Assembly (NCBI GenBank): GCA_003514055.1
Contig: DOSG01000001.1
Span: forward strand, 24,571-88,570
Direction: 5' to 3'
Length of the DNA stretch: 64,000 nt
Origin: Candidatus Yanofskybacteria bacterium
GTDB taxonomy: Bacteria > Patescibacteriota > Minisyncoccia > 2-02-FULL-40-12 > GWA2-44-9
Positions 2,483 to 62,023 of this stretch are shown here, piece by piece. Under the pieces are notes generated by a model. It saw nothing but the letters and a program-made list of their open reading frames with translations. It was not told the DNA's origin and did no database searches. The position numbers and the translations under genes are program-made. The first letter of the stretch is position 1, and each line of letters starts with the position of its first letter.

Positions 2483-2794
2483 ATGTGGACTGAACCAGTA
2501 ACTATCATGGTGCCATCTAGGATGTGGGAACTGCGAAAAAGGACCAAGAAAAGATTCGAGCAACTTGAGAAGATGGTGAAAACCAGTAAGCGGGTCAATT
2601 GGTTCGATCTGGACAAATTTTTTATGGATACTCGTAGAGATTGGAATATCCAGTGGCAAGGAGTTGATCAACATACTGGTGGCGAAGAGTTCGTCGAAAG
2701 GTGGTGGCACGACTATTTTGTCCCAAGGTTCGATGCTCTTAAGAAAGCTAAGGTAGCCCAGGACAGACGGATGAGGAGGCACGCTAAGAAATAA
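2483..2794 (+). CDS. small conserved protein, family A (paralog of 14342..14668)
   Basis: AGGAG RBS; shares VDQHTGGEEFVERWWHD(Y/F)FVPRF block with second copy; own terminator. Confidence 0.6.
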   Translation: MWTEPVTIMVPSRMWELRKRTKKRFEQLEKMVKTSKRVNWFDLDKFFMDTRRDWNIQWQGVDQHTGGEEFVERWWHDYFVPRFDALKKAKVAQDRRMRRHAKK

Positions 2795-2796
2795 TA

Positions 2797-2815
2797 AGGC
2801 CATTAGGCCTTTTTA
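2797..2815 (+). terminator. rho-independent terminator
   Basis: AGGCC-atta-GGCCT + TTTTT. Confidence 0.6.
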
Positions 2816-2854
2816 TCTTGAAAAAAGTTGGGTTTTGTTGTAAAGTATGGACAT

Positions 2855-2928
2855 TGCGGGATCGTCTAATGGTAGGACACATCCCTCTGGAGGATGGTAT
2901 CTTGGTTCGAATCCAGGTCCCGCAGCCA
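2855..2928 (+). tRNA. tRNA-Gln (anticodon CUG)
   Basis: Acceptor TGCGGGA/TCCCGCA, D-arm, anticodon loop CTCTGGA, T-arm CTTGG-TTCGAAT-CCAGG, discriminator G then CCA. Confidence 0.85.
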
Positions 2929-2981
2929 CTATTGAAAGTATCGAGGTAGACCGAGGAGGGGAAGTATCTATATCTACAATA

Positions 2982-3006
2982 AAAAGCCCCGCGTTAGCGG
3001 GGCTGT
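2982..3006 (-). terminator. rho-independent terminator of AAA gene (minus strand)
   Basis: CCCCGC-gtta-GCGGGG with T-run on minus strand directly after stop at 3018. Confidence 0.6.
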
Positions 3007-3017
3007 GTCTTCGAAAA

Positions 3018-4955
3018 TCAGATGTTTACAATCTTTCTTGCCCGGACCTGGGCCAGGTAGCCATCTAGATCTTCGATCAGATTGCGCTTGGCAATGCCTT
3101 GGACAATCTGACCGACGTTGGGCGGTAGGAGTAGTCGTGACGAGCACTCTAGTAGTCCGACCATTGTCATGAAGTCGATAGCTGACTGAGAAGCGCTCGG
3201 GATGAAGTCATCTATGGCGCTATTCAAGGCATTGCTATCAACTATTTTGCCAGAGGCAAAGCGGAAGGCCGCGAGGATAATGGCCTCGACATCGGCGCCA
3301 GACAGACCATCTGTCTTCTTGGCGAATGTCGCGAAGTTCTTGATATCAGTCGGGATATTGTATCTCTTGAACATAACTCGGAAGATATCAGGCAGTTCGT
3401 CCATCGACGGCATCGGGATCAGGATTCTCTGGTCACCACGGCCGCTGCGCTTGAGGGCTGGATCGATACGATCCGGTCTGTTGGTGCAGGAGATGACGAC
3501 GACTTTACCACGAATTCTTGGATCGGAGAGGAACTCCATCCACATTTTCATCAGACGCTCGGCAACTCCAGAGTCACCCTTGGGTGCGTCGCGCTGTGCG
3601 TCGGCTAGATCGGCTTCGTCGTTCATGACGACAACCGGCGCCAGAGACCGCAAGGCGTAGATGAATTTCTGCATTCGGGCTTCGGATTCTCCGACCCACA
3701 TCGAACGAATATTCTTCGTCTTGATGAAGTTGAAGGCGGCTTCTTTAGCCAGGGCTTCAACCAGGGCGGTTTTGCCGGTTCCCGGCGGGCCCATGAAATA
3801 TATGCCCATTGGCACTAGTCGGTATTCTCCGTTTTTGATGGCATCGAGAACCGATTGGAGATATTTTTTGATATACGTGAGACCACCTATGTCCTCGAAG
3901 CCACGTTGGGCGTCCACGACTTCCATGAGCTCGCCATATTCGCTATTGAGAATATTTCTTTTTCTATTTTTTACGAAATTGAGATCGAGCGTTTGCCCGG
4001 TTTTCAGTGCCTGCAAAAAGATTTCAGAAATTTGTCTAAAGCTCATGCCTTGTGCGGCATGGGCAAAGACCGATACTTCGAAATCTGACGGCAAGGTAAT
4101 GACTGGTCCAAGGCTTTCGACCTCGACGCGCTTCTCATTAACTTCGGCTGCGATCTTCTTGTCGACACTTGTGTCGGCTTTTTTGGACTGCTTATCCAAT
4201 TGCGCGATTTCTCCTTCTAGGACCTGCTTCTGTCTTGACCGATAGGTCGTATTGGAGATAAAGTCAATCCTTTCGTCTTTGTCAGGCTTAGGTATGAATA
4301 CCTGATTCGCAGCTGAGCCGTTATTTCTTAGTTCCGAGGAAACTTTTGTGATTTCGTCGGTGAGAAGAATGATGAGGTTATTCTTAGACCTCAGTCTTTC
4401 GCTCTGGCTCCAATTACGCAGTGTCTGGATAGTTACTCTTTCGTTGGCCGGTAACATCGCATTGGCGCCAGGGTTGGGGGCAATGAAATGTGCCGATTTG
4501 ATAACGACGGCCATGTTCTCGGATTTGTACATTACCTTTTCGATAAGTGGTAGACAAGAATTTGGATCTTGTGGCAGTCCACGTTTGGCGGCTAGGTCTG
4601 CCTTGGCGGCGGCGATAGGATCGGCGCCAGTCGCGGCATCTGTTTCAAGGCCAGCCAGTTTCTTGAATTCCTTTTCCATGGCCGATGTTAGAAATCTCAT
4701 TCCCGAAGCAACGTCGTAGAAGATGACAATCTGGCGAGTATCGAAGACCTGCCGCAAGAACTCCCTAAAAGGGATGTATGCGGTATCGGGTTCGATCTCG
4801 CACTTTGGGTTAAGAACTAGTCCATCGGTATCACCGTGGAAGATAAAGAAGTGTGCCATGCCTGATTTTAAGGGAAGAATAAAGTCCTTCTCCAGCCATT
4901 CGGGCATTTTGTATTCGATTACGTTGGTTAGTGTTTCTTCCTTGGGAGTTTTCAT
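3018..4955 (-). CDS. classic AAA+ ATPase (unfoldase-type) with ~380-aa unknown N-terminal region
   Basis: Walker A GPPGTGKT, Walker B VVVMNDEAD, SRH/Arg-finger ISCTNRPDRIDPALKRSGRGDQ. Confidence 0.8.
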   Translation of the reverse strand: MKTPKEETLTNVIEYKMPEWLEKDFILPLKSGMAHFFIFHGDTDGLVLNPKCEIEPDTAYIPFREFLRQVFDTRQIVIFYDVASGMRFLTSAMEKEFKKLAGLETDAATGADPIAAAKADLAAKRGLPQDPNSCLPLIEKVMYKSENMAVVIKSAHFIAPNPGANAMLPANERVTIQTLRNWSQSERLRSKNNLIILLTDEITKVSSELRNNGSAANQVFIPKPDKDERIDFISNTTYRSRQKQVLEGEIAQLDKQSKKADTSVDKKIAAEVNEKRVEVESLGPVITLPSDFEVSVFAHAAQGMSFRQISEIFLQALKTGQTLDLNFVKNRKRNILNSEYGELMEVVDAQRGFEDIGGLTYIKKYLQSVLDAIKNGEYRLVPMGIYFMGPPGTGKTALVEALAKEAAFNFIKTKNIRSMWVGESEARMQKFIYALRSLAPVVVMNDEADLADAQRDAPKGDSGVAERLMKMWMEFLSDPRIRGKVVVISCTNRPDRIDPALKRSGRGDQRILIPMPSMDELPDIFRVMFKRYNIPTDIKNFATFAKKTDGLSGADVEAIILAAFRFASGKIVDSNALNSAIDDFIPSASQSAIDFMTMVGLLECSSRLLLPPNVGQIVQGIAKRNLIEDLDGYLAQVRARKIVNI

Positions 4956-4959
4956 GATC

Positions 4960-5631
4960 CTACCTCTGCTTTAGGAAGTCGTGATGTTCAACGCCGGTGG
5001 CGATTGGTTGGCCAGATTCGTGCTCTTCCGAAAATCGGATTTTGATACCGAATTTCTGAGCAAGCAACATAAGCTTGGCCCGTTCTTCCTTCAATACGGA
5101 TTTTGATTCGAAATGTTCGAAAGTTAGAACACCATTGCCATTGCTACCGACAGCCACGCTCAGATATCTGTGAACGTCGGCACTTTCATTTTTCTCGCCT
5201 TCAACGATAGTCGTCTTCTTACCGCCGATAACTTTGTTGCTAGTCATCGTGGTGTAATCTAGAAGCTGGGCGATGATGGCAAGGACCTCGATTTGGAAGC
5301 GCTCGCCGACGTTTTTGGCAGCAGTTTCAAGTTGCTGCTTTTCTTTTGGTGTCATGAATTGAGCCTTGATAGCCAACTCGCCATTAGAAATCTGGAACTT
5401 GGCGTTGCCGGTATAGCCGATAGCGCGAAGAGTACGATTCAGGGCCTCTTCAAAAAGGGGATTGATATCTAGTCCAGTAAGCCAATCAATGAATACAGTA
5501 TCTTCGACGCCCATATTGTCCAATAGGGTCTTGTCGATTTTCGGAGCTTTGACCTTCTCCTTGAATTCTTGTGGCAACTTTGGCGCCACGCGGATTCTCG
5601 TAATGTTCTTGTACCCGATGTTGCAAGGCAT
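4960..5631 (-). CDS. hypothetical protein (operon partner of AAA/vWA genes)
   Basis: 223 aa, 5-nt gap to AAA gene, same strand. Confidence 0.55.
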   Translation of the reverse strand: MPCNIGYKNITRIRVAPKLPQEFKEKVKAPKIDKTLLDNMGVEDTVFIDWLTGLDINPLFEEALNRTLRAIGYTGNAKFQISNGELAIKAQFMTPKEKQQLETAAKNVGERFQIEVLAIIAQLLDYTTMTSNKVIGGKKTTIVEGEKNESADVHRYLSVAVGSNGNGVLTFEHFESKSVLKEERAKLMLLAQKFGIKIRFSEEHESGQPIATGVEHHDFLKQR

Positions 5632-5737
5632 GGGGTCTCCTCTCGGTTGTAAACGTGCGAATGAGTCGTCATTGTTTTATCACATAAATCGCGACTTGGC
5701 AAGACTAAAAAACGCTCCGTTTGGAGCGTATATCTTA

Positions 5738-6772
5738 TTAGATCTTCAGGGTACTTGGCTTCTTTTTCGACGAAGATGTCTCGTTGGGAAGTTCTTTGAC
5801 CCTGGCAGTACTTTTTGCCTTAGATCTCGTGGGTTTGCGATTTCGTACCCATTCATCAAGATCCTTGAGTGCAGTCCCGATTTGCTTGATTCTCTTCTCG
5901 CTTTGCGGCTTATACTCGACACCTTCGGCGAGATCGAGTGGTCTCGTTCGCATGTCTTCGAGATACTGCTCTAGCGTCCGGGCTCCGGATACTAAGGCAT
6001 ATACGCCCAGTGTGAGGTCGCCGATTGCCAGATCCTCTGGCAGAATGATAATCCTCTCACTGCCAAGGACCTCAGTCCATTGGCCGACGATACTTGTATT
6101 GTTCCAGCCTTCGCGGGTGGTGGCACCGGTATATCGACGATGAATAAGAAAAACATTTCCTTTGAATTTCTCAATGAGATCAGTGAAGACCTCTCTTGCA
6201 CTGATATTCTTATGCTCGCCACCGAAGTGATCTCTTAGGTCGCTGGCATAGAGGTCAGGCACAAATGCTTCGTCGCCTGTAATTAGGTATATGGGCTTTA
6301 CGGCCTTGGGCATTTTGACGAGATAGGCGTAGTAGTACGCGGTTAACGCATAGGATTCACTGCCTTGACCACCGCCATTGCCTTCGAAGTGGATTCGCTT
6401 GAACCACCTGTCCAAATTGCGGAGTGCCGCGAAGTCGGCCATCTGAAGAGGCGAGACATCGGATCGAATGTCTCCCGTAGCTGCCACACTCATCATCGGA
6501 TCAGGCAGATATTTTCGGGCTACAATCTGGCCGACGATGCCGGGCCATTTGTCCCAGATAATCTTCGGCAAAATGCCCATTGAACCAGTCTCATCGAAAT
6601 CATAGACGAGTGGATTCCCCGCATTACAAACGAGGCGTCGATTCATTGGCGATAATGCCGGATCCATATACGATTGTTGCAAGGCTGTCTCTGCGACGCT
6701 AGTTACGCCATTACTACCTCGATACACGTTGCTGGTAACATCTCGATCGTAGTATGAACCGCCTCCACCCAT
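5738..6772 (-). CDS. von Willebrand factor A (vWA) protein, paralog 2
   Basis: MIDAS motif FDETGSMG; start chosen at MGGGGSYY (AAGGAG RBS) by alignment to paralog; C-terminal ...KKKPSTLKI. Confidence 0.75.
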   Translation of the reverse strand: MGGGGSYYDRDVTSNVYRGSNGVTSVAETALQQSYMDPALSPMNRRLVCNAGNPLVYDFDETGSMGILPKIIWDKWPGIVGQIVARKYLPDPMMSVAATGDIRSDVSPLQMADFAALRNLDRWFKRIHFEGNGGGQGSESYALTAYYYAYLVKMPKAVKPIYLITGDEAFVPDLYASDLRDHFGGEHKNISAREVFTDLIEKFKGNVFLIHRRYTGATTREGWNNTSIVGQWTEVLGSERIIILPEDLAIGDLTLGVYALVSGARTLEQYLEDMRTRPLDLAEGVEYKPQSEKRIKQIGTALKDLDEWVRNRKPTRSKAKSTARVKELPNETSSSKKKPSTLKI

Positions 6773-6859
6773 GTGAGTCTCCTTGTTAATGATCCGGATA
6801 ATATATACCAATCATTTGAAGATCGGTCAAGGACAATAAAAAAGACCGCTGTTAAGCGG

Positions 6860-7873
6860 TCAGATCTTGAGGGATGTCTTTGGATTGCCCTTCTTGCTCT
6901 TGCTTGTGGGTGTATCTTTCGCACTGACCTTCGTGGCGTTGATGCCGGCCAGCTTTCGGAAGGCAGCTTTGGCAATGCCTAGATATTCGGCTTCGAAATC
7001 CTTGCCGCGGAGATTCTCGGTGGCTTTCTCGGCATCGATCTTGCCTTCGCAGACGCCGACGAGCGTGCCGATCAATTCACAGACCTGTTCGGTCTTATCC
7101 ATGCCGACGACGAATTCATTGCCGAGCAATTCGCGCCATCGTTTCCAGACTCGAGGGTCTCGGGCATTATCTGTCAGTCTCGGGATGATATAGAACACCT
7201 GGTATTTTTCTTGGGCTTCTTTGACAATCTGCTCGACTGGGATATCTGTCTCGAATGGGGCCTTGCCCATCAAGGCTGCGATCTCGTCGACGCTGACCGG
7301 TTCGTGAGGAAGCTCGTCGCCGATCAAGAACAGGTAGCCCTTCTTACCTCGTTTTTCGAAGGTGTCGATGGAAGTGTGCCGGGCCATGAAGTAGATGGCG
7401 TTCGGGTATGATTCGCCTCCATTGCCACCGCCTAGACCTTCGAGATACACTCTTTGGAAGAAATCCATCAATTCCTCGGCGCCAGGTTCGAATTCACCGA
7501 TCTGGAGAGGCACCTTATCGCACTTCGAATCTCCGACCGCACCGAATAGGATGTGCACATTCGGGAGATAGTCCTTCTTGAGGAAGTACCCCATCAAATC
7601 CTTGAGACGAACTTCGAGTTCAACTGGCACGGTTCCCATAGAACCAGTGACGTCGAAAATGACAGCCAGAGCATTTGATTGCGGGTGAGTAGCACTATCT
7701 CGACTCTCCCTGATCTTTTTCTTGTCGATAGCAAGATTGGGATGGCACTTGATATCGCTGGTCTTTGTTGCCTTTCGCATATCCGCCGTATAGGCAAAGG
7801 TATCTTTGCCAGAACTCTTGATAGCCTGTTTTCTTGCAGTCAAATCCTCGTCACGATAGGTAGATCCGCCCAT
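6860..7873 (-). CDS. von Willebrand factor A (vWA) protein, paralog 1
   Basis: MIDAS motif FDVTGSMG; start at MGGSTYRDE; C-terminal ...KGNPKTSLKI. Confidence 0.75.
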   Translation of the reverse strand: MGGSTYRDEDLTARKQAIKSSGKDTFAYTADMRKATKTSDIKCHPNLAIDKKKIRESRDSATHPQSNALAVIFDVTGSMGTVPVELEVRLKDLMGYFLKKDYLPNVHILFGAVGDSKCDKVPLQIGEFEPGAEELMDFFQRVYLEGLGGGNGGESYPNAIYFMARHTSIDTFEKRGKKGYLFLIGDELPHEPVSVDEIAALMGKAPFETDIPVEQIVKEAQEKYQVFYIIPRLTDNARDPRVWKRWRELLGNEFVVGMDKTEQVCELIGTLVGVCEGKIDAEKATENLRGKDFEAEYLGIAKAAFRKLAGINATKVSAKDTPTSKSKKGNPKTSLKI

Positions 7874-8026
7874 GAGCCTGTTCCTTTCATGTAAAAGTCC
7901 GCTGTCCCTAACCAGAAAGAGCATATTAGACAAATGCCGTGCTGTCAACGATTGACGTTGGTTCGGAAATAATGTAGGATAATGACAACATTTTGGTCCC
8001 TTTACAAGTAAGAGACGGAGGAAATC

Positions 8027-10450
8027 ATGGCGAGTTTGACCGGAGTCAAGCTGGCAATATGCCAGATGCCAGTCGTGGTCGGAAGGCCTGACCTAAACGT
8101 TCGGTATATGCGTCAGGAGATTTCTGACGCGAAAGATAAGGGCGTAGACATTATTATCTTCCCGGAACTTTCGGTAACTGGGTATATTATCGGCGATATG
8201 TTTGAGCGTGAAGAATTCATTCTCGATGCATACAAGTCGTGTGATGCTATGTTGCGTGAAGTAACGAAAGACGGCATTACGGCGATTGTCGGTGTGCCCG
8301 TCTATGACAACGGTCTTCGTGGCGAAGACGGACGTCGAAGATTATACAATGCAGCTGTTGTATATAGCGACGGTAAGTATATTGGTAAGGCCATCAAAAC
8401 GTTGCAGCCAAACTATCGAATGTTCGACGATGATCGTCATTTCTATTCAGAGCGAAAATTGGCACAGGAGAACGGCCTAGATCTGAATATGATCAATAAC
8501 GTATTTGCCATAAAGTTAAGAGACAGTCGGATAATACGTCCCGGTGTAATGCTTTGCGAAGATGGATGGCCTGATGACTATTATATTGATCCGAGCGAGG
8601 CGCTCATGAATAATGGTGCCGAATTAATTATCAATATATCGGCGTCACCATGGGGTTGGCAGAAGAATCGTAAACGCCACAGCGTCGTCAAGGAGCTCTT
8701 GACCAAACGTAAGGTGTCGATGGTATATGTAAATAACACCGGCTTGCAGAACAATGGCAAGAATTTGATCGTGTTTGATGGCAGCTCAACAGTATACAAC
8801 GCGAACGGAGAAGTTGTTTACGAAGTTGCTCCCTATGCCGTTGGTAATCACTATTTCGAATTTACGGAAAAACTTCCCGTTGTTATTCAAAACAAACAAG
8901 ATGATTCGCGGGAGCTATATCTGGCGGTACATAACGCCATCAAGGAATTCTGTTCATCATTCAAGAAGATTATCATTGGCGTCAGTGGTGGTATTGATTC
9001 AGCTGTCGCCGCTGCGGCATATGTCGATGCGCTGGGCAAAGATAAGGTCCTCGGAGTCTTTATGCCTTTTAGTAAATATAGTTCTACCGAGAGCGAAGTA
9101 AGGGCTCGTGCTATAGCTGAAAGTCTCGGTATTGAATTCCGAGTCGTGAGCATCGATGCAATCGTTGATTCGATTGCGGGATTACTTTCTACACAAGAGG
9201 GAACTCTTGAGTATGAGAATATACAGGCTCGGGCTCGTATGGAAGTCCTAGCAGCCATTGCTCAGAGAGAGGGTGGCGTGTTCGTCTGCAATACAAACAA
9301 AGTCGAAGCCGCATTTGGCTACGGCACGATGTATGGCGATATCGCTGGTGCTCTCGCGTTGTTGGCCGATATGGTGAAGCGCGAAGTCTATCAGTTGGGT
9401 AATTACTACAATGAGCAGGTTTTTGGTAGGCAAGTAATTCCTGCCGATTGTTTCAACATTGCGCCCACGGCCGAGTTGGGCCTGAATCAGAAAGACCCCT
9501 TCGATTATGGGAATCTGCTTCGCCGAGGTTATCACGACGAGATGGTTAGGGCATTCACTGAATTCAGACTTGGTCCGGAATGGTTCATTGAAGCCTATAT
9601 GTCGAAGCAACTTGAGATAGAGTTGAAGCTTGAAGCTGGGACGATCGATCGATTGTTTCCTTCAGCTGGCAAGTTCGTCGCTGATCTCGAAAAACACTGG
9701 GCTTTGTATCGACGAGCATTCTTCAAGACAAATCAAATGCCGCCGATTCTCATCGTGAGCAAGCGCGCATTCGGTTATGATCTGCGAAGGTCAATGGTGA
9801 CGCCCCACTTTACTGGAAGGTATCGACGATTAAAGGCATTCGTATTGCCTAAAGAGCCCAGACGAATTGCGATCTATGGTGGAAGTTTCAATCCGCCCGG
9901 ATTGAATCATCTCCAGGTCGTACAAAGTGCTCTTAAATCATTCGACACAGTTATCGTTGTGCCGTGTGGTCCCAGAGGGGATAAGGATTCTATCAATACG
10001 GTAACCTTCGTGGACCGCAAGAATATGATCGAGATGGCTTTTGGCGATGTACCTGGCGTAGAGATTGATTGGCGAGATTTGAAGTCGGGCGACTTCACTC
10101 CAACCTATCAATTGCAGGAGATCTACAAAGCAGAATTCCCCGACGACGAAATATGGTTCGTGGTCGGGAGTGATATAGTTTTGAAGGGTTCAGATGGCCT
10201 ATCGCTTATTCAGCGAATGTGGCGTCAGGGTAAGAGAATCTGGCAAGAGTTAAACTGGGCAGTGATTGCTCGAAGCAACGTGGCTATTCCAGCCGACAAC
10301 ATGCCGCCGAATTTTCTACTGCTTGCGGCGAGTGACATCTTTGGATCATCGAGTACCATTAGACAGATGGTAGCTGATGGCAAAGATATCGGTGATTTCG
10401 TCGATGACGAAGTTGGTGAATATATTGCCAAGAAGGGATTGTACAGATAG
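8027..10450 (+). CDS. nadE: Tri-domain fusion: glutamine-dependent NAD+ synthetase (nitrilase-type glutaminase + NadE PP-loop) fused to NaMN adenylyltransferase (NadD)
   Basis: N-terminal CN-hydrolase domain; SGGIDSAV PP-loop; C-terminal YGGSFNPPGLNHL HxGH nucleotidyltransferase motif and ...SSTIRQ. Confidence 0.8.
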   Translation: MASLTGVKLAICQMPVVVGRPDLNVRYMRQEISDAKDKGVDIIIFPELSVTGYIIGDMFEREEFILDAYKSCDAMLREVTKDGITAIVGVPVYDNGLRGEDGRRRLYNAAVVYSDGKYIGKAIKTLQPNYRMFDDDRHFYSERKLAQENGLDLNMINNVFAIKLRDSRIIRPGVMLCEDGWPDDYYIDPSEALMNNGAELIINISASPWGWQKNRKRHSVVKELLTKRKVSMVYVNNTGLQNNGKNLIVFDGSSTVYNANGEVVYEVAPYAVGNHYFEFTEKLPVVIQNKQDDSRELYLAVHNAIKEFCSSFKKIIIGVSGGIDSAVAAAAYVDALGKDKVLGVFMPFSKYSSTESEVRARAIAESLGIEFRVVSIDAIVDSIAGLLSTQEGTLEYENIQARARMEVLAAIAQREGGVFVCNTNKVEAAFGYGTMYGDIAGALALLADMVKREVYQLGNYYNEQVFGRQVIPADCFNIAPTAELGLNQKDPFDYGNLLRRGYHDEMVRAFTEFRLGPEWFIEAYMSKQLEIELKLEAGTIDRLFPSAGKFVADLEKHWALYRRAFFKTNQMPPILIVSKRAFGYDLRRSMVTPHFTGRYRRLKAFVLPKEPRRIAIYGGSFNPPGLNHLQVVQSALKSFDTVIVVPCGPRGDKDSINTVTFVDRKNMIEMAFGDVPGVEIDWRDLKSGDFTPTYQLQEIYKAEFPDDEIWFVVGSDIVLKGSDGLSLIQRMWRQGKRIWQELNWAVIARSNVAIPADNMPPNFLLLAASDIFGSSSTIRQMVADGKDIGDFVDDEVGEYIAKKGLYR

Positions 10451-10453
10451 TTA

Positions 10454-10477
10454 GCCCCGCAAAAGCGGGGCTATTTA
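10454..10477 (+). terminator. rho-independent terminator
   Basis: GCCCCGC-aaaa-GCGGGGC + TATTT. Confidence 0.6.
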
Positions 10478-10546
10478 ATTGGCTTGACAAAGCGACAAAT
10501 TATTAGTATTAATATGCCAGTTGGTCTTTGAAAACGGGAGGTCTTC

Positions 10547-11485
10547 GTGCTCATTGGTACGCTTCCGACGTTGGTTAGCCCATCAACATTGATTGTGGCC
10601 GAGAACATGATTGCTCATCCGGCTATCGCCGCAGTTCGTTACAATACTGGTGGCGACAGTCCGCTGGCGCCATTGCAGATATTATCGATGGTAAAGAAAA
10701 TGACGGACAAATATGGAAAGACGCTATACGTCGATCTTGAGGGCCGACAGCTTAGAATTGCTCGCTGGACTCCATTTGAATCGGGCATGGTGGTGCTCAA
10801 CCGAGATTTTTCGGTGAAACCACCGGCTAGGATATTCATTCGTAATGCCGGCTGGTTCGATCTTGTTGCGGCCAAACCAAAAGAAAGAAAGGTATATGTT
10901 GAGAATGGTCCAGCTTTACGCCAGTACTATTTTGGCGAGAGCCAGAGCACTCACATTGTTGGTGGCGATTTCGAAGTCCAGGGATATTTGGGCGGTTTAG
11001 ACTTTGAATATATCGAAGCTGCTAAGCAATCAGGTATAACGAACTTTATGCTTTCGTTCGTCGAAGATGAAAGTGATTTGGATGATTTCTATGTGCACTT
11101 CCCAAGACGAAAACGAAGCAAGATGTCGGTTGTTCTCAAAATCGAGTCCCAAAAGGGATTGGCATTTATTCGGAGCCGGCATTGGCGCATCAATGAGCGA
11201 CTCATGGCAGCGCGAGACGATCTGTTTATCAGCTTTGGCGAGAATCCCGTCGGAATCTACGAAGGGCTGAAGCAGATCATCAAAGTTGATCCAAGCGCTA
11301 TTGTGGCCTCACGTATTTTGCACGGCTTCCAATCGACCGGTATCGTTACGATGGGTGATATTGCAGACATCATATTGATGTCGCGAATCGGTTATCGGAA
11401 TTTTATGTTTTCCGATGGTATTGCCAAGAAATTTCCCGAAGCTATTAAGCTCTGGGAAGAGATTAAGCCATCGATGGAAGTATAG
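10547..11485 (+). CDS. pyruvate-kinase-barrel-like / HpcH-type TIM-barrel protein (tentative)
   Basis: MLSFVEDESDL and KIESQKGL resemble PK motifs SFVRSAEDV / KIENQEG; too short for full PK. Confidence 0.4.
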   Translation: MLIGTLPTLVSPSTLIVAENMIAHPAIAAVRYNTGGDSPLAPLQILSMVKKMTDKYGKTLYVDLEGRQLRIARWTPFESGMVVLNRDFSVKPPARIFIRNAGWFDLVAAKPKERKVYVENGPALRQYYFGESQSTHIVGGDFEVQGYLGGLDFEYIEAAKQSGITNFMLSFVEDESDLDDFYVHFPRRKRSKMSVVLKIESQKGLAFIRSRHWRINERLMAARDDLFISFGENPVGIYEGLKQIIKVDPSAIVASRILHGFQSTGIVTMGDIADIILMSRIGYRNFMFSDGIAKKFPEAIKLWEEIKPSMEV

Positions 11486-11487
11486 TC

Positions 11488-12795
11488 ATGAAACGAGCTT
11501 TTGTTGTTGGTGGTCTTGTCTTTGGAGACGAGGGTAAGGGTACGACCGTAGACTACTTGGTTCGACAATATGACGCCAGCGTTGTAATCCGCTATAACGG
11601 TGGATCGCAGGCCGGACATAATGTTGTTACGCCAGATGGTATCCATCATTGCTTCGCTCAGTTTGGTTCTGGCACGTTGGTGCCGGGCGTCTGGACATAT
11701 CTCAGTCGGTTCATGTTTATTGACCCAATGAGACTCATGTCCGAATACGATGTGTTAGCTGGGAAAGGTTTTGGCGACGCATTAGATCGCTTGATCATTA
11801 GCGGTAGCTGTCCGATTATTACGCCGTATCATAAGTTAGCAGGACAGATCCAGGAATTGATAAACGGCGATGGCAGGCTTGGCAGTTGTGGGATGGGTGT
11901 CGGCGACGCCATGAAGGCTTTCGCCAACGATCCCGTGGATTGTCTGACGATGAGCGACCTATCAGATCCCTGGGTGCTAGAGAGAAAGCTTAGAATTCTT
12001 CAAGCGAAGAAAAAGAGCTTCGTCGAGATGGTCGCCAAGTTTAGTACCGATAAGGCAGTCACCGATAGAATCGCCGAAATTAATTCGGATAAACTGTTTG
12101 AGCGATGCTTAAAATCGTATTCCGCTTTTTCAGTGATTATTCCGAACATCGACGATGGCCGATATCTAAGCGAATTACTTTCTAGGTCGGGTAATATAGT
12201 TTTCGAGGGTGCACAAGGTGCCTTGCTTGATCGTGAGTTAGGCTTCCAGCCGTATATAACCAGATCCAACTGTTCATTTGCAAACGCAGATGAATTGCTG
12301 ACTGGTTACGATGGTCGTATTGTGAAGCTTGGTATCACAAGGGCTTTCGCTACGAGACATGGTAATGGCCCATTTGTTAGCGAGGCTGCTCTGCCTTCTA
12401 GCGTGCTAGTCGGCGAACATAACGTTCAGAACGAGTGGCAAGGTCATTTCCGGGTTGGTTGGCTAGATCTCGTTGCGCTTAGACGAGGCTTCGATATTTT
12501 GGGCAAGCTGGACGGTGTGGTGGTTACCAATCTCGACCGTGTCAGCGAGCTGGATGAGTTGCGAGTATGTATTGCCTACAATACTGCAGAAGGCCTGACA
12601 AAAGACAGGATAATCGGTAGCGGACGTCTGATGACCGATGGGTTATTCACTAGTACCCCCGTATATAGGCTCTTCCGTCGAGAGGGCGTCTTTGAAGAGT
12701 ATATGAAGTATCTGGAGAAGTATATTCCAGTCCCGATAGTTGTAACTTCTCGTGGTCCTACTGCCCGAGACAAGGAATCCATCCTTAATATATAG
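11488..12795 (+). CDS. purA: adenylosuccinate synthetase
   Basis: GDEGKGTTVDYL P-loop, GGSQAGHNVV, 435 aa. Confidence 0.9.
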   Translation: MKRAFVVGGLVFGDEGKGTTVDYLVRQYDASVVIRYNGGSQAGHNVVTPDGIHHCFAQFGSGTLVPGVWTYLSRFMFIDPMRLMSEYDVLAGKGFGDALDRLIISGSCPIITPYHKLAGQIQELINGDGRLGSCGMGVGDAMKAFANDPVDCLTMSDLSDPWVLERKLRILQAKKKSFVEMVAKFSTDKAVTDRIAEINSDKLFERCLKSYSAFSVIIPNIDDGRYLSELLSRSGNIVFEGAQGALLDRELGFQPYITRSNCSFANADELLTGYDGRIVKLGITRAFATRHGNGPFVSEAALPSSVLVGEHNVQNEWQGHFRVGWLDLVALRRGFDILGKLDGVVVTNLDRVSELDELRVCIAYNTAEGLTKDRIIGSGRLMTDGLFTSTPVYRLFRREGVFEEYMKYLEKYIPVPIVVTSRGPTARDKESILNI

Positions 12796-12816
12796 CCCTA
12801 ATCGGGCTATTTTTAT
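12794..12816 (+). terminator. rho-independent terminator
   Basis: AGCCC-taat-CGGGCT + TTTTT. Confidence 0.55.
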
Positions 12817-13122
12817 TAACTATTAGAGATAACGGGAGAGGTTACTGATAAATATTCAAAGTAGTATAATTACGTAAATTGAGATTAGTTTGGTGATGGG
12901 TTATATTAGAAGAAGATCTGGGATGTAGTAATCGTCACGATTCCTATCGATCCAGGTTTTGACAGCCTCTACGGTCCGCAGCAAGCGCTCCCTCATTAAG
13001 ACGACTAAGGGGAGCATAAGGTAAAGGAGCGCACAGTGCCCTGAACGAAGTGAAGGGGTATAAGCGATTTAGATGTTGAGGCAGGTTCGGTATTCAAAGA
13101 GCGTTGAAATAATAGTTCAAAT

Positions 13123-13692
13123 ATGAAAACTGCAATTCTTATTCACGGTATGCCTTCAAAAGAGGAGTACCTTGATGTAAACACCCCAGTCGCTTCAAAT
13201 AATCAGTGGTTCCCGTGGCTACAAAAACAACTTTCGATAATAGGCGTGGCGGCACAAACACCAGAAATGCCTGAGCCTTTTAGGCCAGATTACGAGAAAT
13301 GGAAAAAAGTATTTGAGCAATTTATTATAGATGAACAAACTATTTTAATTGGTCATAGTTGTGGCGGCGGCTTTTTAGTTAGATGGCTAAGCGAGAATAA
13401 TGTGAAAGTTGGCAAGGTAGTCTTGGTTGCACCGTGGATTAATACCGAAGCAGACGACACTGTTCCAGGCTTCTTTGATTTTAAAGTTGATGAAAATTTA
13501 GTTTCTAAAACTGATGAATTGCACCTATTTATTTCTTCGGATGATGAACAGGATGAATTAGATACGGCCGACATGATCGAAAAAAGGGTCCACGGTGTTC
13601 GAGTGCATAGATTTACTAATAAAGGCCACTTTTGTATAGGTTTTAATTTAATAAATGAGAAGTTTCCTGAGTTGTTGGAGATTTTGAGATAG
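13123..13692 (+). CDS. small alpha/beta serine hydrolase (YdeN/RBBP9-like)
   Basis: 189 aa, ILIGHSCGGGF nucleophile elbow. Confidence 0.55.
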   Translation: MKTAILIHGMPSKEEYLDVNTPVASNNQWFPWLQKQLSIIGVAAQTPEMPEPFRPDYEKWKKVFEQFIIDEQTILIGHSCGGGFLVRWLSENNVKVGKVVLVAPWINTEADDTVPGFFDFKVDENLVSKTDELHLFISSDDEQDELDTADMIEKRVHGVRVHRFTNKGHFCIGFNLINEKFPELLEILR

Positions 13693-21837: not shown

Positions 21838-22030
21838 TTCACGGGCATATGTGCAGTAGTCAAATGGGAATTGAACCCATACTAACTTAGAAATTGAGCG
21901 TGGAGGGCATTTAATTCTCCAGTCCCCAGTTAAGGGGTCATATCCCGCCTTCCCTTCGTCGAAACGAAGAGGCGGGGCCTCAATCTCCGTAGAACAGCCG
22001 TGCTTCCATGACACTGTTGGCTACCGTACC
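21838..22030 (-). other. structured noncoding element next to recombinase (candidate att site or unidentified ncRNA)
   Basis: minus-strand tRNA-like T-arm ATGGG-TTCAATT-CCCAT; GNRA-capped hairpin CCCCGCCTCTTCG-TTTCGA-CGAAGGGAAGGCGGG; no ORF. Confidence 0.35.
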
Positions 22031-22120
22031 TATATATTAACATATCTTTTTACGATTGACAAGGTTGGCTAAATTTGTTAAAATCTCAACAATAGTAGCC
22101 CTTTTTCAAAGAGGTGATTC

Positions 22121-22939
22121 GTGAGAGCTCCATTGTATATCGGTGTGACGGGGTTTATGACCCCACAAGAAGTCCGTGCCGGCCTGCGGTGCTTTGAGGC
22201 ATCGTCAGACCGCAAGCTCATGGTGGGTGTGCTCGTCAGTTCCAAGACGCTCGTCGGCAAGATCAACAAGTGGCCTGGCCGTTATCCGAAAGTCGACAGC
22301 AGGATTACCGAGCTGTTCGAGAAACAGAAGCTCGACGCGTACAAGGTCTTCCAGCGACACGAATGCGCGGTCAACCTCATTCACTACAACACGGATGAGC
22401 CGAAGACGCTGTCTGAACAACTCATCAAACTCGCGCACATGTATGGTCCGAATCTCGACGGCTTCCAGCTCAACGTCGCGTGGCCGCACGTGAGCGAGAT
22501 CGAGAAGTTCCACGCGTCGACTCACTGGGAACAGCGTCTCGTCTTGCAGGTCGGTGGTCATGCGCTGGAGAAAGTCGACCACGACCCAAAGAAGCTCGCT
22601 GACATGATCAGTCACTACGGCGGTTCGGTCAGAGTGATCAACGACGTTCTCATCGATCCGAGCGGCGGCAAGGGCCAGCCCTTCGACGCCGAGAAAGCAC
22701 TCAGCTACCTGAAAGAGATTGCCAGCCGAGGGTTCGACATCAATCTCGGCGTCGCTGGCGGTCTCGGCCCAGACACCATGGCGTTGCTCAATCCGTTGCT
22801 GGATGACTTTCCTGATCTGAACATCGATGCGGAAGGTCAACTGCGCGACAAGGAGACGGACGACCTCGACATCATCAAGATGTCGTCCTACCTCACGCAG
22901 GCACAGCAGTGGTTCGCAACCACCAGTAAGGGGGCTTAG
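22121..22939 (+). CDS. TIM-barrel protein, TrpF/PRAI-like (tentative); GC-rich foreign gene
   Basis: IDPSGGKGQPFD and GVAGGLGPD resemble PRAI phosphate-binding motifs; ~58% GC. Confidence 0.45.
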   Translation: MRAPLYIGVTGFMTPQEVRAGLRCFEASSDRKLMVGVLVSSKTLVGKINKWPGRYPKVDSRITELFEKQKLDAYKVFQRHECAVNLIHYNTDEPKTLSEQLIKLAHMYGPNLDGFQLNVAWPHVSEIEKFHASTHWEQRLVLQVGGHALEKVDHDPKKLADMISHYGGSVRVINDVLIDPSGGKGQPFDAEKALSYLKEIASRGFDINLGVAGGLGPDTMALLNPLLDDFPDLNIDAEGQLRDKETDDLDIIKMSSYLTQAQQWFATTSKGA

Positions 22940-23000
22940 CCCCGCAAGAGAGATCCCGTACAGAAATGTACGATCTTCTGTGCGGGGCTCTTTTGTTTTA
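22937..23000. terminator. long bidirectional hairpin terminator between convergent genes
   Basis: GCCCCGCA...TGCGGGGC extended hairpin followed by TCTTTTGTTTT. Confidence 0.55.
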
Positions 23001-24935: not shown

Positions 24936-25450
24936 GACGGTACATAGGTTGTTATTTTATATGTCCGTTTAGGTATCAGTTTAGGTCTTCAAAAAGAGAA
25001 GACTCCCAATTGAATAGAGCGAGATCGACCAGATCGCTCAATACAATTTAGGGAGTCTGCTTAAGAATTATCCTCATTATATATCCACCCAAAAGATGAG
25101 CAATACCTAACTGTGGATAAGACCACATGTGTAAATACTGTCAATAACGTAAATTGGGCCACTGTTGGTAAGGCCCCTTCGCAACCCCTCAATACTAAGG
25201 TAGAAGGGAGGGTGGTCATTTAGCTCTCAAACTGCTAAAATACCCTTAACAATTCAGACCTAACCCCTAAGATTCGTCTCAGGATATGGTCAAAAATCCC
25301 GCTAGAGAATAAAAGACTCCTCGTCCGGAGTCGCTCTAGCGGGTCACGTCTCGAAAGGGATGTGGGTGAAGCCGAAAGGTTTCATCGCAACGGGCGGGGA
25401 GTCTTTTGCGTCCAGACTCTCTGTCTTGCACTTAAAACCCGCTAGAGTGC

Positions 25451-36674: not shown

Positions 36675-37496
36675 ATGATCAGGAGAAAAGAAGTTACGCT
36701 AGAGAGTCGAATCAATGATCATTGTTCTGCGGGCGAATATGAGAACGCCCTAACTCTAGGTGCTAATGACCCATTCTATCTGTCTCGTATTATTATCAAT
36801 GCATTCAAGGACGCCAATATTGGTCAAGACATGATCGATCGTCTGCTGGGTATGTATATCGAAATGATGCAAGATCGTGATTCTTGGGCCTTGGAAAACC
36901 GTTTTCGGTACTGTCTGATATGGTTTGATCATTTTTCTTACTATCTATGGCAAAGAAGGATGATGGAATGGTTGAGGAGATTCTATAGAATAATCGTCTT
37001 ATCTGGCCTAGAGAAAGATGAGTCTACGGTAAGAGAGGTTCGGCATTTAATATATAGATTTGTCGAATCAGCAAGGTGGGATGATAATCCTAGAGAATTC
37101 GGGCTATTGCCTGGCATATTGAATGGTCTAAGAAAGGACTACAGAGGTGATGATTATATAATTCCTCGGCTAACAAGGACGTTCAGCTCCGAAGAAGAGT
37201 TTCTCTTTTGGAAGTTGGGTCGAGTATCGGCTATCAGCGACTTTGATTCCGATGTCCAAGAAGAAGGACTGGTCAGCCTGAATATGGTGTCGAATATTTT
37301 CGACAGAATTAGGCAGGTCGGTGGGAACATGAATCGTGCCAGAGATATAGTAGAGGCGATTATTAAATCACAGCTGAATGGATGGACAATAGTAGCTGGT
37401 CGAGCTAGGAACCAAAAGGGCGCCATGCAGGCGCTGAGAGTATCGATGGCTATGGCGAGGAAACTAGAGGAGTATAGGTCTCGATTCAGAGAATAG
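36675..37496 (+). CDS. hypothetical protein
   Basis: 273-aa ORF; terminator follows. Confidence 0.5.
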   Translation: MIRRKEVTLESRINDHCSAGEYENALTLGANDPFYLSRIIINAFKDANIGQDMIDRLLGMYIEMMQDRDSWALENRFRYCLIWFDHFSYYLWQRRMMEWLRRFYRIIVLSGLEKDESTVREVRHLIYRFVESARWDDNPREFGLLPGILNGLRKDYRGDDYIIPRLTRTFSSEEEFLFWKLGRVSAISDFDSDVQEEGLVSLNMVSNIFDRIRQVGGNMNRARDIVEAIIKSQLNGWTIVAGRARNQKGAMQALRVSMAMARKLEEYRSRFRE

Positions 37497-37510
37497 GCAA
37501 AGACAGTATG

Positions 37511-37535
37511 GCCCCGCTTTAGCGGGGCTTTTCTT
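37511..37535 (+). terminator. rho-independent terminator
   Basis: GCCCCGC-ttta-GCGGGGC + TTTTCTT. Confidence 0.6.
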
Positions 37536-37572
37536 GTAAATAAAAAACGGGCGGCCTGGTGGCCGCCCGTTG
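37536..37572 (-). terminator. repeat-family-A terminator (minus strand) after small paralog 1
   Basis: ACGGGCGGCC-tggt-GGCCGCCCGT with T-run on minus; identical copy at 38439-38464. Confidence 0.65.
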
Positions 37573-37594
37573 GTGTACCTGATGCTGGGGCTGA

Positions 37595-37987
37595 TTAGGA
37601 TTCGACGACTGGCGTCGTCGGCGCCGACACCATGGCGAGGATCTTCTCGGCCTCTTCGGTACTGATGACTCCGTCTTCGATTGCCATGTCGAGCATTTTG
37701 CGGTGGTTGGCCGGTGGAAAATTCACGAAGACCTCGGCTGTGTCTTTTAGGAATTGTTCCGAAGCCAACTCGTCCGTCATCGGCAGGCCGCAGGATTCGA
37801 TTTCTTGCGTGGTCGCCGCCGTCTCCTCATCAGTCTGCTCGATATTGCCTTTGGCAATCAACTTGGCAAGGAGTTCTTTGCCGCTGTCGATAGAGAAGAA
37901 GCCTCGCGACTGTTCGCCGTCGGGGCTTTCGAGCTTCCGATGAGCTCGTGGGTTTCCACAATCACAACGTACAACTACTAGTTCCAT
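37595..37987 (-). CDS. small Cys-containing protein, GC-rich, paralog 1
   Basis: MELVVVRCDCG...; shares CxCG, HRKL, SFFSI, GKIEQT.EETAAT, SCGLP, C-terminal APTTPVVES with paralog 2; GGAGGG RBS. Confidence 0.55.
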   Translation of the reverse strand: MELVVVRCDCGNPRAHRKLESPDGEQSRGFFSIDSGKELLAKLIAKGNIEQTDEETAATTQEIESCGLPMTDELASEQFLKDTAEVFVNFPPANHRKMLDMAIEDGVISTEEAEKILAMVSAPTTPVVES

Positions 37988-38427
37988 GAGACCCTCCACG
38001 TCTGTTGAAAGAACCTTCTACGCGATGAGGATGATAACATGTTGGTAGATATCGTCAAGTTGCTTAGGCCTCAATACAAAACATCGGCCAGAGGCCGATG
38101 TGGGGGGGGCAGAAGGTATCTACTTCTTTATGACTGTAGCTGGGCATTCTGCCGCTTTTTTTACAAGACTATCATATTCAAACGATTCGTTTCCGCTGGT
38201 GGTTACTTTACGAGTGGTGCTCGGCAAGGCGATCGCATCGCCAGAATCGTCAGAAATCAAATGCAATTGGACTGAGCCGCTGGGCCAAATTCTGACTCTG
38301 AGTACGCGATTGTGATCGTCCAAGAAAAATCTGTGTTTAGGAATCGCCACGGCACTTCTCCTTAGAGAACGAATGGACTAAGAATATGCTGCCACAATAG
38401 GGCCCCCGTGTCAATGTAGAGCCTCTG

Positions 38428-38464
38428 CTAAATAAAAAGACGGGCGGCCTGGTGGCCGCCCGTT
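38428..38464 (-). terminator. repeat-family-A terminator (minus strand) after small paralog 2
   Basis: identical palindrome ACGGGCGGCCTGGTGGCCGCCCGT preceded by AAATAAAAAGA. Confidence 0.65.
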
Positions 38465-38488
38465 GGCACCTATGGTGCTTGGCGCTAA

Positions 38489-38929: not shown

Positions 38930-39007
38930 GGAAAGAACCTCCTGGTTGACGATGGCCACATACTAGCACGCTAGGGCATAATGTCAAGCGTGTGAACTTG
39001 GCGTGAC

Positions 39008-61160: not shown

Positions 61161-61170
61161 ATTGATTTAA

Positions 61171-61205
61171 AACAGAGCCGTCGCTAGCGACGGCTCTGTT
61201 TTTTG
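61171..61205 (+). terminator. rho-independent terminator
   Basis: AACAGAGCCGTCGC-ta-GCGACGGCTCTGTT + TTTT. Confidence 0.65.
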
Positions 61206-61268
61206 TAAGAAAAGAGCCCGACCGGGGGATGAAGGGCTCTTCCCTTATCCCGCGGTCGGGCTAGACGA

Positions 61269-61877: not shown

Positions 61878-62023
61878 TCCCGTCCTGTCGTTTACGAGTC
61901 GGGCTACCCGTCTGAGTGCCCGATAGTGAAAAGAACCGACTGACTATTACATAATTATAGCACATTGTACGCCATTTAGTCAATAGTGATACTTGGTCCG
62001 GCGACTGGATTTTTTGGAGGGAG

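Follow-up and report, generated by a model that had tools for sequence, protein, structure and literature searches.

Genes and predicted transcription signals of the locus

A 64,000-nt stretch of the genome of a Candidatus Yanofskybacteria bacterium (GenBank assembly GCA_003514055.1, contig DOSG01000001.1, positions 24,571 to 88,570), which we call the window and to which all coordinates given without a locus handle refer, contains four open reading frames (ORFs) arranged head to tail on the minus strand at 7948-6860, 6811-5738, 5631-4960 and 4955-3018. An earlier note on this DNA, made from the sequence alone, had placed these ORFs correctly and had described them as a tRNA-adjacent operon for two paralogous von Willebrand factor A (vWA) proteins with a metal-ion-dependent adhesion site (MIDAS), a protein of unrecognised kind and an AAA+ unfoldase. 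We refer to their products as vWA1, vWA2, p223 and AAA. All four genes are real, but the unit does not end with them: genes for a PurA-like enzyme, a mini pyruvate-kinase-like (PK-like) protein and a NadE-NMNAT fusion lie in one operon (8027-12795) that diverges from the vWA/AAA genes (Table 1). On our best reading, the four reported genes supply the adaptors and the remodeller of a module that comprises seven genes or more and has its enzymatic core outside 3018-7948, and this module is a rare variant of a widespread vWA/PurA-like module.

Both vWA genes probably start at internal ATG codons (7873 and 6772), which are preceded by the Shine-Dalgarno-like sequences AAAGGAA and AAGGAG, respectively. 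Public gene calls on identical contigs agree with these starts, giving 337 and 344 amino acids (aa); the predicted N-termini are MGGSTYRD... for vWA1 and MGGGGSYYDRDV (MGGGGSYYDRD...) for vWA2. Because terminator-like hairpins follow vWA1 and vWA2 and a promoter-like site precedes vWA1, the cluster probably forms three transcription units (vWA1, vWA2 and p223-AAA) and no single simple operon; p223 and AAA are separated by 4 nt. Terminator-like sites number 15 in the region, against 4.6 expected in shuffles, and the terminator that had been placed right after the AAA stop codon is present as a hairpin (3004-2985). The promoter-like site of vWA1 stands back-to-back with promoter-like sites of the divergent NadE operon in a spacer of 153 nt.

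Table 1. Features of the vWA/PurA-like locus and its transcription signals, in window coordinates
Feature	Position	Strand	Remarks
vWA1	6860..7873	-	337 aa from ATG 7873; longest ORF from 7948
vWA2	5738..6772	-	344 aa from ATG 6772
p223	4960..5631	-	orphan alpha+beta protein of 223 aa; the gene ends 4 nt before AAA
Tandem classic-clade AAA+ ATPase	3018..4955	-	645 aa; degenerate N-terminal AAA, coiled-coil insert, active C-terminal AAA
NadE-NMNAT fusion	8027..10450	+	Accessory module gene, divergent from the vWA/AAA genes
Mini pyruvate-kinase-like TIM-barrel protein	10547..11485	+	312 aa, corresponding to the A domain alone; belongs to the core of AAA-type modules
PurA-like enzyme, vWA-linked clade	11488..12795	+	435 aa
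tRNA-Gln(CTG)	2855..2928	+	Convergent neighbour of the AAA gene, 89 nt from the AAA stop
Intrinsic-terminator-like hairpin 3' of the AAA stop	2985..3004	-	8-bp stem with 7 G-C, then TTTTATT
Terminator-like hairpin and T-run between vWA2 and p223	5712..5729	-	
Terminator-like hairpin and T-run between vWA1 and vWA2	6844..6861	-	
Sigma-70-like promoter TTGACA-17-TATGCT upstream of vWA1	7920..7948	-	

The vWA family and its enzyme partners

The two vWA proteins are paralogous (23% identity, E = 1e-18 by BLASTP). No Pfam, NCBIfam (vWA models, E ≤ 0.1) or PADLOC model matches either of them, and a profile of their family found nothing among PDB sequences at E ≤ 1. An AlphaFold2 model of vWA1 built from 32 relatives (pLDDT 84.8, with the last 22 residues, 316-337, below 50) matched integrin beta-I, alpha-I and VWF A3 domains in a Foldseek search of the PDB (E ~1e-6, probability 1.00, target-normalised TM ~0.6). 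The MIDAS residues of vWA1, D74-x-T76-x-S78 (D74-V-T76-G-S78, with Thr for the first Ser), T167 and D186, are invariant in the 32 relatives; vWA2 retains D-E-T-G-S and GDE, with the MIDAS Thr position unaligned. Both are thus, as had been noted, MIDAS-bearing vWA-fold proteins, and they belong to a large uncharacterised family. Phrog_2971, a phage family with no assigned function, matches vWA1 at E = 8e-52 and vWA2 at 1e-16. Further residues are invariant in the vWA proteins (RESRDSxxHPxS, GQFE and EGGGGG..ESY), and such conservation exceeds what a passive adaptor would need.

The family is widely distributed: 6,470 of the 8,000 candidates scored are matches, the family occurs in at least 581 species, mainly of Actinomycetota, Chloroflexota, Planctomycetota and Myxococcota, and 220 phage records encode a member (201 Mycobacterium, 10 Rhizobium, 6 Vibrio and 3 other phages). 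The widespread subtype is that of vWA1, which shares 44-50% identity with its relatives from Labilithrix, Gemmataceae and Frankia. The vWA2 subtype is specific to p223-AAA, and its orthologues (41-48% identity) adjoin p223-AAA in five further loci (L094, L095, L096, L098 and L099; L with a number denotes a locus of our collection). A third, divergent subtype, about 29% identical to vWA1, was seen in L095 (5337-6461) and in L103, L126, L127, L133, L139 and L142. It does not have the N-terminal Met-Gly, lies directly upstream of the PurA-like gene in some AAA-type loci, and still bears a locus-specific C-terminal tail, such as ...EEDWTL. We had considered whether the PurA-like enzyme might use the N-terminal Met-Gly, which is invariant in the vWA proteins, as its amine substrate; this idea is weakened by the third subtype, which begins MPREKG... 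in L095 even though it stands upstream of the PurA-like gene.

Two kinds of loci carry vWA genes. Type A loci are those of the wider family, most of them with a J-domain partner, and AAA-type (type B) loci are the p223-AAA kind, as in the window. In the 80 best genomic loci of the vWA family, a PurA-like gene lies directly downstream of the vWA gene on the same strand in 75, a gene for a protein of about 400 aa with a J domain and a kinase fold lies directly upstream in 62-63, and an NrtR-like regulator, composed of Nudix and winged helix-turn-helix (wHTH) domains, precedes the J-domain gene in 48. When the flanking ORFs were clustered, run-on and antisense ORFs from high-GC genomes obscured the picture, but no other family recurred in more than about 10 of the 80 loci. 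On inspection of Labilithrix, Protofrankia and Mycobacterium, Vibrio and Rhizobium phages, the next or next-but-one gene was PurA-like, and the Mycobacterium phage also bears the J-domain protein beside the pair. At least five phyla, and phages as well, contain the vWA/PurA-like pair.

The J domain keeps its HPD motif in 54 of 55 alignable sequences, while the kinase catalytic loop reads HGA instead of HRD in 61 of 61 and DWC takes the place of DFG in 50 of 62. Since HPD is kept and the HRD aspartate is replaced, the J-domain partner is most likely a pseudokinase scaffold that would bring Hsp70 to the vWA protein. In the window, p223 and AAA take the place that this partner has elsewhere. Both arms are encoded together in three hybrid loci (L120, L121 and L125), which have a J-domain pseudokinase with a vWA protein that ends ...KRL as well as p223-AAA, next to PK-like, PurA-like, NadE/NMNAT and Nudix genes. 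The ORF at 4847-5977 of L011 is gp263 of Mycobacterium phage Erdmann, annotated as 'serine/threonine kinase', with orthologues in cluster C phages; it is a J-domain (HPD) protein whose kinase-like fold has HGA for HRD, and probably a pseudokinase acting as an Hsp70 co-chaperone. Its neighbour, annotated as 'PurA-like adenylosuccinate synthetase', is without the aspartate-site residues discussed below.

The PurA-like enzyme is the universal partner of the vWA family and no canonical adenylosuccinate synthetase. It matches PF00709 (E = 3e-68) and falls below the PurA equivalog cut-offs (198.8 vs 402 for NF002223 and 167.6 vs 395.6 for TIGR00184) and below that of PurZ (44.1 vs 300, NF038379). 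It is closer to the vWA-linked enzymes of Labilithrix, Frankia and phage Erdmann (37-38% identity, 235-284 bits) than to E. coli PurA (29% identity, 139-145 bits). In a residue census of 93 members of the vWA-linked clade, in E. coli PurA numbering, D13, K16, H41, Q224, T239 and D333 are kept in all 93, and the P-loop GDxGKG is kept as well; in E. coli PurA, this set serves phosphoryl transfer and guanine specificity. Replacements are as consistent: N38Q (93), T129C (88), V273H (93), T300W (89), T301Q (93), deletion of R303 (93) and R305F (86), and the clade has the motif NEWQG-HFRVGWLD where canonical PurA has GATTGRRRRTGWLD. T301, R303 and R305 are presumably the aspartate-binding residues of the E. 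coli enzyme. Because the catalytic and GTP-site residues are invariant while those of the aspartate site are replaced, the clade looks like an active GTP-dependent enzyme with an amine substrate other than aspartate. On the grounds of similarity, curated cut-offs and the residue census, we rejected the window protein as the housekeeping adenylosuccinate synthetase. In L065, an Anaerolineae metagenome-assembled genome, the PurA-like gene coexists with a canonical purA 3 kb away (6143-7378; 45% identity and 339 bits to that of E. coli), and the PurA-like protein is therefore a paralog and no housekeeping enzyme.

AAA-type loci number about 50, with GC contents of 0.33-0.69, from searches with p223, with the AAA N-domain and by local tblastn; the organism names attached to them are Yanofskybacteria and Jorgensenbacteria. 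We mapped 20 of them that have long flanks, using known module proteins only, and found a PurA-like gene in 19, a PK-like gene in 18, a vWA2-type gene in 18, a vWA1-type gene in 13, a 652-aa protein in 5, a Nudix gene in 3 and the J-domain partner in 2. The neighbourhood is conserved, as the earlier note had proposed to examine, while the gene order is shuffled (for example p223-AAA-vWA2-PK-PurA, or PurA-PK divergent from p223-AAA-vWA2-vWA1), and the linkage is therefore functional, beyond inherited synteny.

A profile of six mini-PK sequences matches the pyruvate kinase A domain (E = 1e-11), and the columns aligned to the metal and phosphate motifs RxN, DxxGxxxR, K-I-E and ARGDL are invariant in the six. 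Against the NCBIfam pyruvate kinase model the protein reaches E = 1e-8 and 34 bits, compared with a cut-off of 432, and it is not a full A+B+C enzyme. PDB entry 8iw2_A, deposited as 'pyruvate kinase', has 321 residues and is thus close to the mini-PK in size; the match between them extends over almost the entire length (profile E = 4.7e-8). The NadE-NMNAT fusion, with Pfam domains CN_hydrolase, NAD_synthase and CTP_transf_like (NCBIfam NAD+ synthase, E = 4e-106), is a glutamine-dependent NAD+ synthase joined to a nicotinate/nicotinamide-nucleotide adenylyltransferase. A protein of 638-652 aa replaces it in L009 (5893-7851, minus strand), in L095 (7945-9861) and in L101, L103, L126, L127 and L133. 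The 652-aa protein of L009 gives only a weak hint of a Pol-beta/MntA-like nucleotidyltransferase and no PDB match.

These results bear on the simplest reading of the locus, that purine, glycolysis and NAD genes of ordinary housekeeping function stand beside unrelated vWA and AAA neighbours through synteny in a small genome. Reduced metabolism is typical of this candidate phylum, the genes that flank the module in the window are housekeeping ones (FtsEX, RF, LepA and MurJ), and the PurA-like gene is the sole PurA-family gene in the window. We nevertheless hold this reading to be highly improbable: the gene set recurs in shuffled order across the whole GC range of the loci, the vWA/PurA-like pair crosses phyla and enters phages, the PurA-like clade is without the aspartate-site residues and does not come near the equivalog cut-offs for PurA, the PK-like protein, with 312 aa, amounts to an A-domain fragment and scores well under the cut-offs for pyruvate kinase, and the p223 family is extremely rare (77 cluster representatives among 1.84 billion proteins).

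C-terminal tails and the proposed remodelling machines

The earlier note had pointed to a shared basic tail at the ends of the vWA proteins, and this is as described: vWA1 ends ...KGNPKTSLKI after a disordered Lys-rich linker, and vWA2 ends ...KKKPSTLKI. Across type A loci, a terminal [RK][LIVF]-COOH, typically ...TTRL or ...DGRL, occurs in 56 of the 60 loci with a J-domain partner and in 3 of the 16 without one (Fisher p = 7e-9, with kinship among loci ignored), and its presence does not follow that of the PurA-like gene. Phages show the same correspondence: in Erdmann, which has the J-domain partner, the vWA protein ends ...TDRL, and Vibrio and Rhizobium phages have neither partner nor tail.

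In AAA-type loci, the last four residues of the vWA paralogs are alike within a genome and different between genomes, even though the paralogs are only about 25% identical overall. Paired tails read LKI/LKI in the window, GGLKV/GGLKV in L009, GRIF/GRIF in L104, AGRI/TGRI in L096, DWTL/DWTL in L103, DWKL/DWKL in L113, YQI/YRI in L115 and FRF/FKF in L126. Mean tail identity is 3.07 of 4 residues within a locus compared with 1.02 for shuffled partners, a value reached in 0 of 20,000 shuffles, which likewise ignore kinship. The linkers before the tails are not conserved and the window tails differ at synonymous DNA sites, which excludes recent gene conversion as the source of the match; the agreement is the pattern that a shared, co-evolving receptor would predict. 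These observations support a functional C-terminal tail that would act as a docking or recognition peptide. The proposal that it is a recognition peptide for the ATPase holds in part: co-variation of the paralogs and association with a partner speak for recognition, but the tail is not AAA-specific, pairs mostly with the J-domain protein and predates the association with AAA.

The ATPase is a classic-clade AAA and not a MoxR protein, in agreement with the earlier note: PF00004 matches over the full model at E = 2e-28, the best NCBIfam models are CDC48, PAN and FtsH, and PF07728 (AAA_5), the MoxR-type model, gives only E = 0.039 and 14.4 bits against a cut-off of 22. Its motifs comprise Walker A (GPPGTGKT, 389), Walker B (VVVMNDE, 441), TNRP in the sensor-1 region (491), RSGR in the second region of homology (503) and a pore loop, M-W-V-G at 419-422, of the aromatic-hydrophobic-Gly form. 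A profile of the first ~340 residues matches AAA domains of p97, Cdc48, NSF, VAT and FtsH (E = 4e-8, profile positions ~139-290), and this region has FIFHGD and no Walker A/P-loop. Since it matches AAA domains yet has no P-loop, the protein is a tandem AAA in which D1 is dead and D2 active, and its N-terminal region is a degenerate AAA and no novel domain. We detected no MIT, ClpX-type or coiled-coil/OB N-domain in it. One apparent link between this ATPase and a kinase was set aside: P0158, 390 aa from a 1.6-kb Logan contig, joins the first 188 residues of an AAA N-domain (48% identical to the window AAA) to the C-terminal half of a Ser/Thr kinase domain, and it is probably an assembly chimera, because the contig is so short and the kinase part begins mid-domain; a real fusion would tie the D1 domain to a kinase.

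p223 is tightly coupled to this ATPase, with AAA following p223 within 400 nt in 39 of 40 loci, and is presumed to be its cofactor or adaptor. It gave no informative match in Pfam, NCBIfam, PADLOC, PHROG or a structure search. Its fold is an alpha+beta sandwich whose first strand begins at residue 5, its best structure matches include the self-processing AdoMetDC, and it has an invariant N-terminal M-P-C-x-I-G, EGEK, FEHF.S, H173 and H216.

The features of p223 and of the tails also frame the proposal of regulated proteolysis, raised in the earlier note along with the idea that the tail is a degron. AAA would unfold the tail-tagged vWA proteins and feed them to p223 as a peptidase, in an HslV/HslU-like gene order and with Cys3 as nucleophile. 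The position of p223 directly upstream of AAA, its invariant Cys and two His, its early first strand and its sandwich fold with a self-processing enzyme among the best matches would suit such a role, and a tail after a disordered linker is what the sites at which unfoldases initiate classically look like. Several results speak against it: the Cys is at residue 3 and would not be residue 1 after removal of Met, no peptidase similarity was found for p223, and no other recognisable protease was found among the gene calls that were read for the window and for related loci, the 20 long loci not having been screened for proteases. Moreover, in the far commoner type A loci the partner of the tail is a co-chaperone of Hsp70, and this favours remodelling over degradation. 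We therefore regard proteolysis as distinctly unlikely.

Proposed mechanism and known systems

We read the module as one in which a chaperone or an unfoldase gates a nucleotide enzyme of a new kind. This is the best reading we have, and we hold it tentatively, at slightly less than even confidence. The vWA proteins would bind a client through their MIDAS, the likeliest client being the PurA-like enzyme or an assembly of it, and the [K/R]-hydrophobic-COOH tail would be the handle by which a remodeller engages them. The remodeller would be p223-AAA in the window and, elsewhere, DnaK brought in by the J-domain protein. Driven by ATP, it would extract or unfold the vWA protein and so switch the state of the PurA-like enzyme, by activation or by reset. 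The enzyme itself may use GTP to activate a 6-oxopurine-type nucleotide and couple it to an amine other than aspartate, and the mini pyruvate kinase may regenerate the nucleoside triphosphate that it uses. The module may be tied to NAD/adenylate or ADP-ribose status, given the NrtR-like regulator of type A, the NadE/NMNAT and Nudix genes of type B and the NAD-salvage and NADAR genes nearby in phages.

A number of observations weigh against this reading. Three loci without the kinase-fold partner have the tail and four with it do not; the tail statistics take no account of kinship among the loci; and one locus, L106, has mismatched paralog tails. The invariant N-terminal Cys and two His of p223 could mark an enzyme, even a peptidase, instead of an adaptor. 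NadE/NMNAT genes are adjacent in only half of the long AAA-type loci (10/20), and in small, reduced genomes the clustering of nucleotide genes could be partly a matter of housekeeping.

A broader reading, which we consider doubtful, takes the module as a novel class of chaperone-gated nucleotide-modifying systems in several phyla and in large phages. The enzyme would join an amine other than aspartate to a nucleotide, a MIDAS/vWA partner would license it and be pulled off by its tail through the Hsp70/J-domain pseudokinase or the p223-tandem-AAA machine, and the whole would respond to NAD or ADP-ribose. Ammonia is one candidate amine, with which IMP or ITP-type nucleotides would be re-aminated in a single step, and an amine of a peptide or protein is another; a new nucleotide or a nucleotide-protein conjugate would be the product. 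There is a real, though minor, chance that the chemistry of the enzyme makes the module categorically new.

Chaperone-gated control has to be weighed against biological conflict, which the earlier note had raised as a possible defence role. In cells the module would be an anti-phage or anti-parasite system and in phages a means of counter-defence or takeover: the vWA protein would sense an invader protein or nucleotide signal, this sensor would be armed or reset by AAA or by Hsp70, and the role of the PurA-like enzyme would be to produce or remove a nucleotide that signals or is toxic, or else to replenish the adenylate/NAD pool. The patchy spread over phyla and in large phages, the self-contained form of the cassette with its variable flanks, the NrtR-like Nudix regulator, of an ADP-ribose-responsive kind, in 48 of 80 loci, and an architecture analogous to MoxR-vWA and ARG-NrtR-vWA systems (PMC7159879, PMC13622651, PMC9503650) are consistent with conflict. 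So are the genes for NAD salvage and ADP-ribose near the phage loci, which comprise NMNAT/Nudix and a phosphoribosyltransferase (PRTase) in a Rhizobium phage and NADAR in a Vibrio phage. In one high-GC locus (L098, 63.7% GC) the module has IS110, IS1 and resolvase genes on its flanks and its PK-like gene is split into ORFs of 184 and 93 aa (12705-13599), which suggests a decaying or mobile copy.

Defence scoring did not bear the conflict reading out. PADLOC-DB 2.0 matches only the generic AAA core (IetA, TRIP13) or the kinase fold and none of the vWA, p223, PurA-like and PK-like proteins, and 1 of 103 flanking ORFs of related loci, a generic Ser/Thr kinase, matches a defence model. The flanks of the 80 related loci hold 95 different, mostly metabolic Pfam families with no integrase among the 25 commonest, the window flanks are housekeeping genes, p223 was not found in IMG/VR contigs, and there is no nuclease, pore-former or NADase effector among the conserved genes. 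In our view, a conflict function is unlikely.

The tRNA-linked genomic island that had been proposed for this position is likewise not borne out. The tRNA is indeed 89 nt from the AAA stop and convergent with it, but we recognised no integrase among the neighbouring window ORFs and gene calls, found no tRNA-derived or att-like repeat in window 2700-13500, and saw the same block in another Yanofskybacteria genome (L009) in a different neighbourhood with no tRNA beside it. The module block (~10 kb) has a GC content of 0.481, compared with 0.426 in the rest of the window. Elsewhere in the window, GC reaches 0.50-0.57 at 22001-23000, 37001-39000 and 61001-62000 (window mean ~0.43), none of these being an rRNA or other Rfam family. 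A LOOT RNA (Rfam RF03000) lies at 25257-25383 on the plus strand (77.5 bits vs a gathering score of 46.4) and is, besides the tRNA, the sole Rfam match in the window. The ORF at 1203-1838 on the plus strand, between ftsX and the tRNA, contains a sequence, EIERRFIV..., that by eye is like the start of a CYTH-type triphosphate tunnel enzyme.

If chaperone-gated control is true, a widespread and unannotated module would come into view, its vWA family having more than 6,000 proteins and reaching at least 581 species as well as 220 phage records. A PurA-derived enzyme with an altered pocket would predict new nucleotide chemistry, and the mycobacteriophage proteins annotated as 'serine/threonine kinase' and 'PurA-like adenylosuccinate synthetase' would probably be a J-domain pseudokinase and a non-PurA enzyme. 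One tail would apparently be served by two unrelated ATP-dependent machines, the Hsp70/J-domain pseudokinase and the tandem AAA with p223, which makes a tail-receptor code directly testable. Finally, a module beside NAD-synthesis genes may bear on the adenylate and NAD pools of reduced genomes.

The module resembles several known systems. MoxR-vWA pairs act on a client enzyme, as in CbbQ-CbbO with Rubisco, NorQ-NorD with NO reductase, RavA-ViaA and BchI-BchD. Such pairs are discussed in PMC7824862. Like them, the window has an AAA+ gene adjoining a MIDAS vWA gene and an enzyme gene as conserved neighbour, and its vWA proteins plausibly bridge ATPase and client. Unlike them, its ATPase is a classic tandem AAA (PF00004, MWVG, dead D1), its vWA proteins are stand-alone, undetected by Pfam and bear a co-varying tail, p223 is obligatory, a J-domain pseudokinase replaces the ATPase in most lineages, and the candidate client is PurA-like. 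The MoxR-vWA-beta-propeller ternary conflict systems (PMC7159879) and the Esr pathway by which Actinomycetales sense threats (PMC13622651) share with the module the cassette of vWA, AAA+ and kinase-fold proteins and the bias to Actinomycetota, Chloroflexota, Myxococcota and Planctomycetota; the module differs in having no MoxR, beta-propeller sensor, FHA domain or phosphatase, a kinase-fold protein with a J domain and without the HRD aspartate, and a PurA-like output gene.

Systems centred on ADP-ribosylglycohydrolase (ARG), regulated by NrtR or WYL proteins and containing vWA or other chaperones, are predicted to counter viral ADP-ribosylation (PMC9503650). The module shares with them a Nudix-wHTH regulator and a vWA 'peptide-binding chaperone', and in the Protofrankia locus an ADP-ribosylglycohydrolase lies 2.5 kb away. 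Unlike in these systems, ARG is outside the 25 commonest Pfam families in the 103 flanking ORFs, and the window has no NrtR or ARG gene; PMC9503650 names neither adenylosuccinate synthetase nor PurA. With PurA and PurZ, the PurA-like clade shares the PF00709 fold, GDxGKG, D13, K16, H41, Q224 and D333, and it departs from both by T300W, T301Q, the R303 deletion, R305F, N38Q, T129C and V273H and by scores below the cut-offs of either.

Recognition of C-terminal tails is known from the Vps4 MIT domain with ESCRT-III MIM motifs, from ClpX with ssrA, and from Mpa/PAN with Pup or C-terminal tags. As in these cases, the paralogous candidate substrates of the module share an extreme C-terminal motif after a disordered linker, and a pore-loop AAA is encoded alongside. 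They differ in that the module has no detected MIT, ClpX-type or coiled-coil/OB N-domain, the candidate tail receptors being p223, the dead D1 and the pore, and in that no partner protease was found in the gene calls read. The AAA core also resembles that of the anti-phage system Iet (the AAA+ IetA with the protease IetS), its best PADLOC match (58.9 bits over residues 385-565). Unlike in Iet, only the generic AAA domain matches (NCBIfam IteA 49.5 vs a cut-off of 510) and there is no IetS-like protease. The TerY-P triad of vWA, Ser/Thr kinase and PP2C differs too: the window has no kinase, the type A kinase fold carries HGA, and no phosphatase is among the conserved genes.

The earlier note had not recognised the arrangement as a described system, and we likewise found no description of a vWA/PurA-like module in the literature, although papers in subscription journals were mostly outside the search and an earlier description is possible. 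The kind of system is already known, namely an AAA+ or chaperone machine, a vWA adaptor and a client enzyme; the module differs from it in the clade of the ATPase (a classic tandem AAA, or Hsp70 by way of a J-domain pseudokinase), the co-varying tail, the orphan p223, and the PurA-like and mini-PK enzymes.

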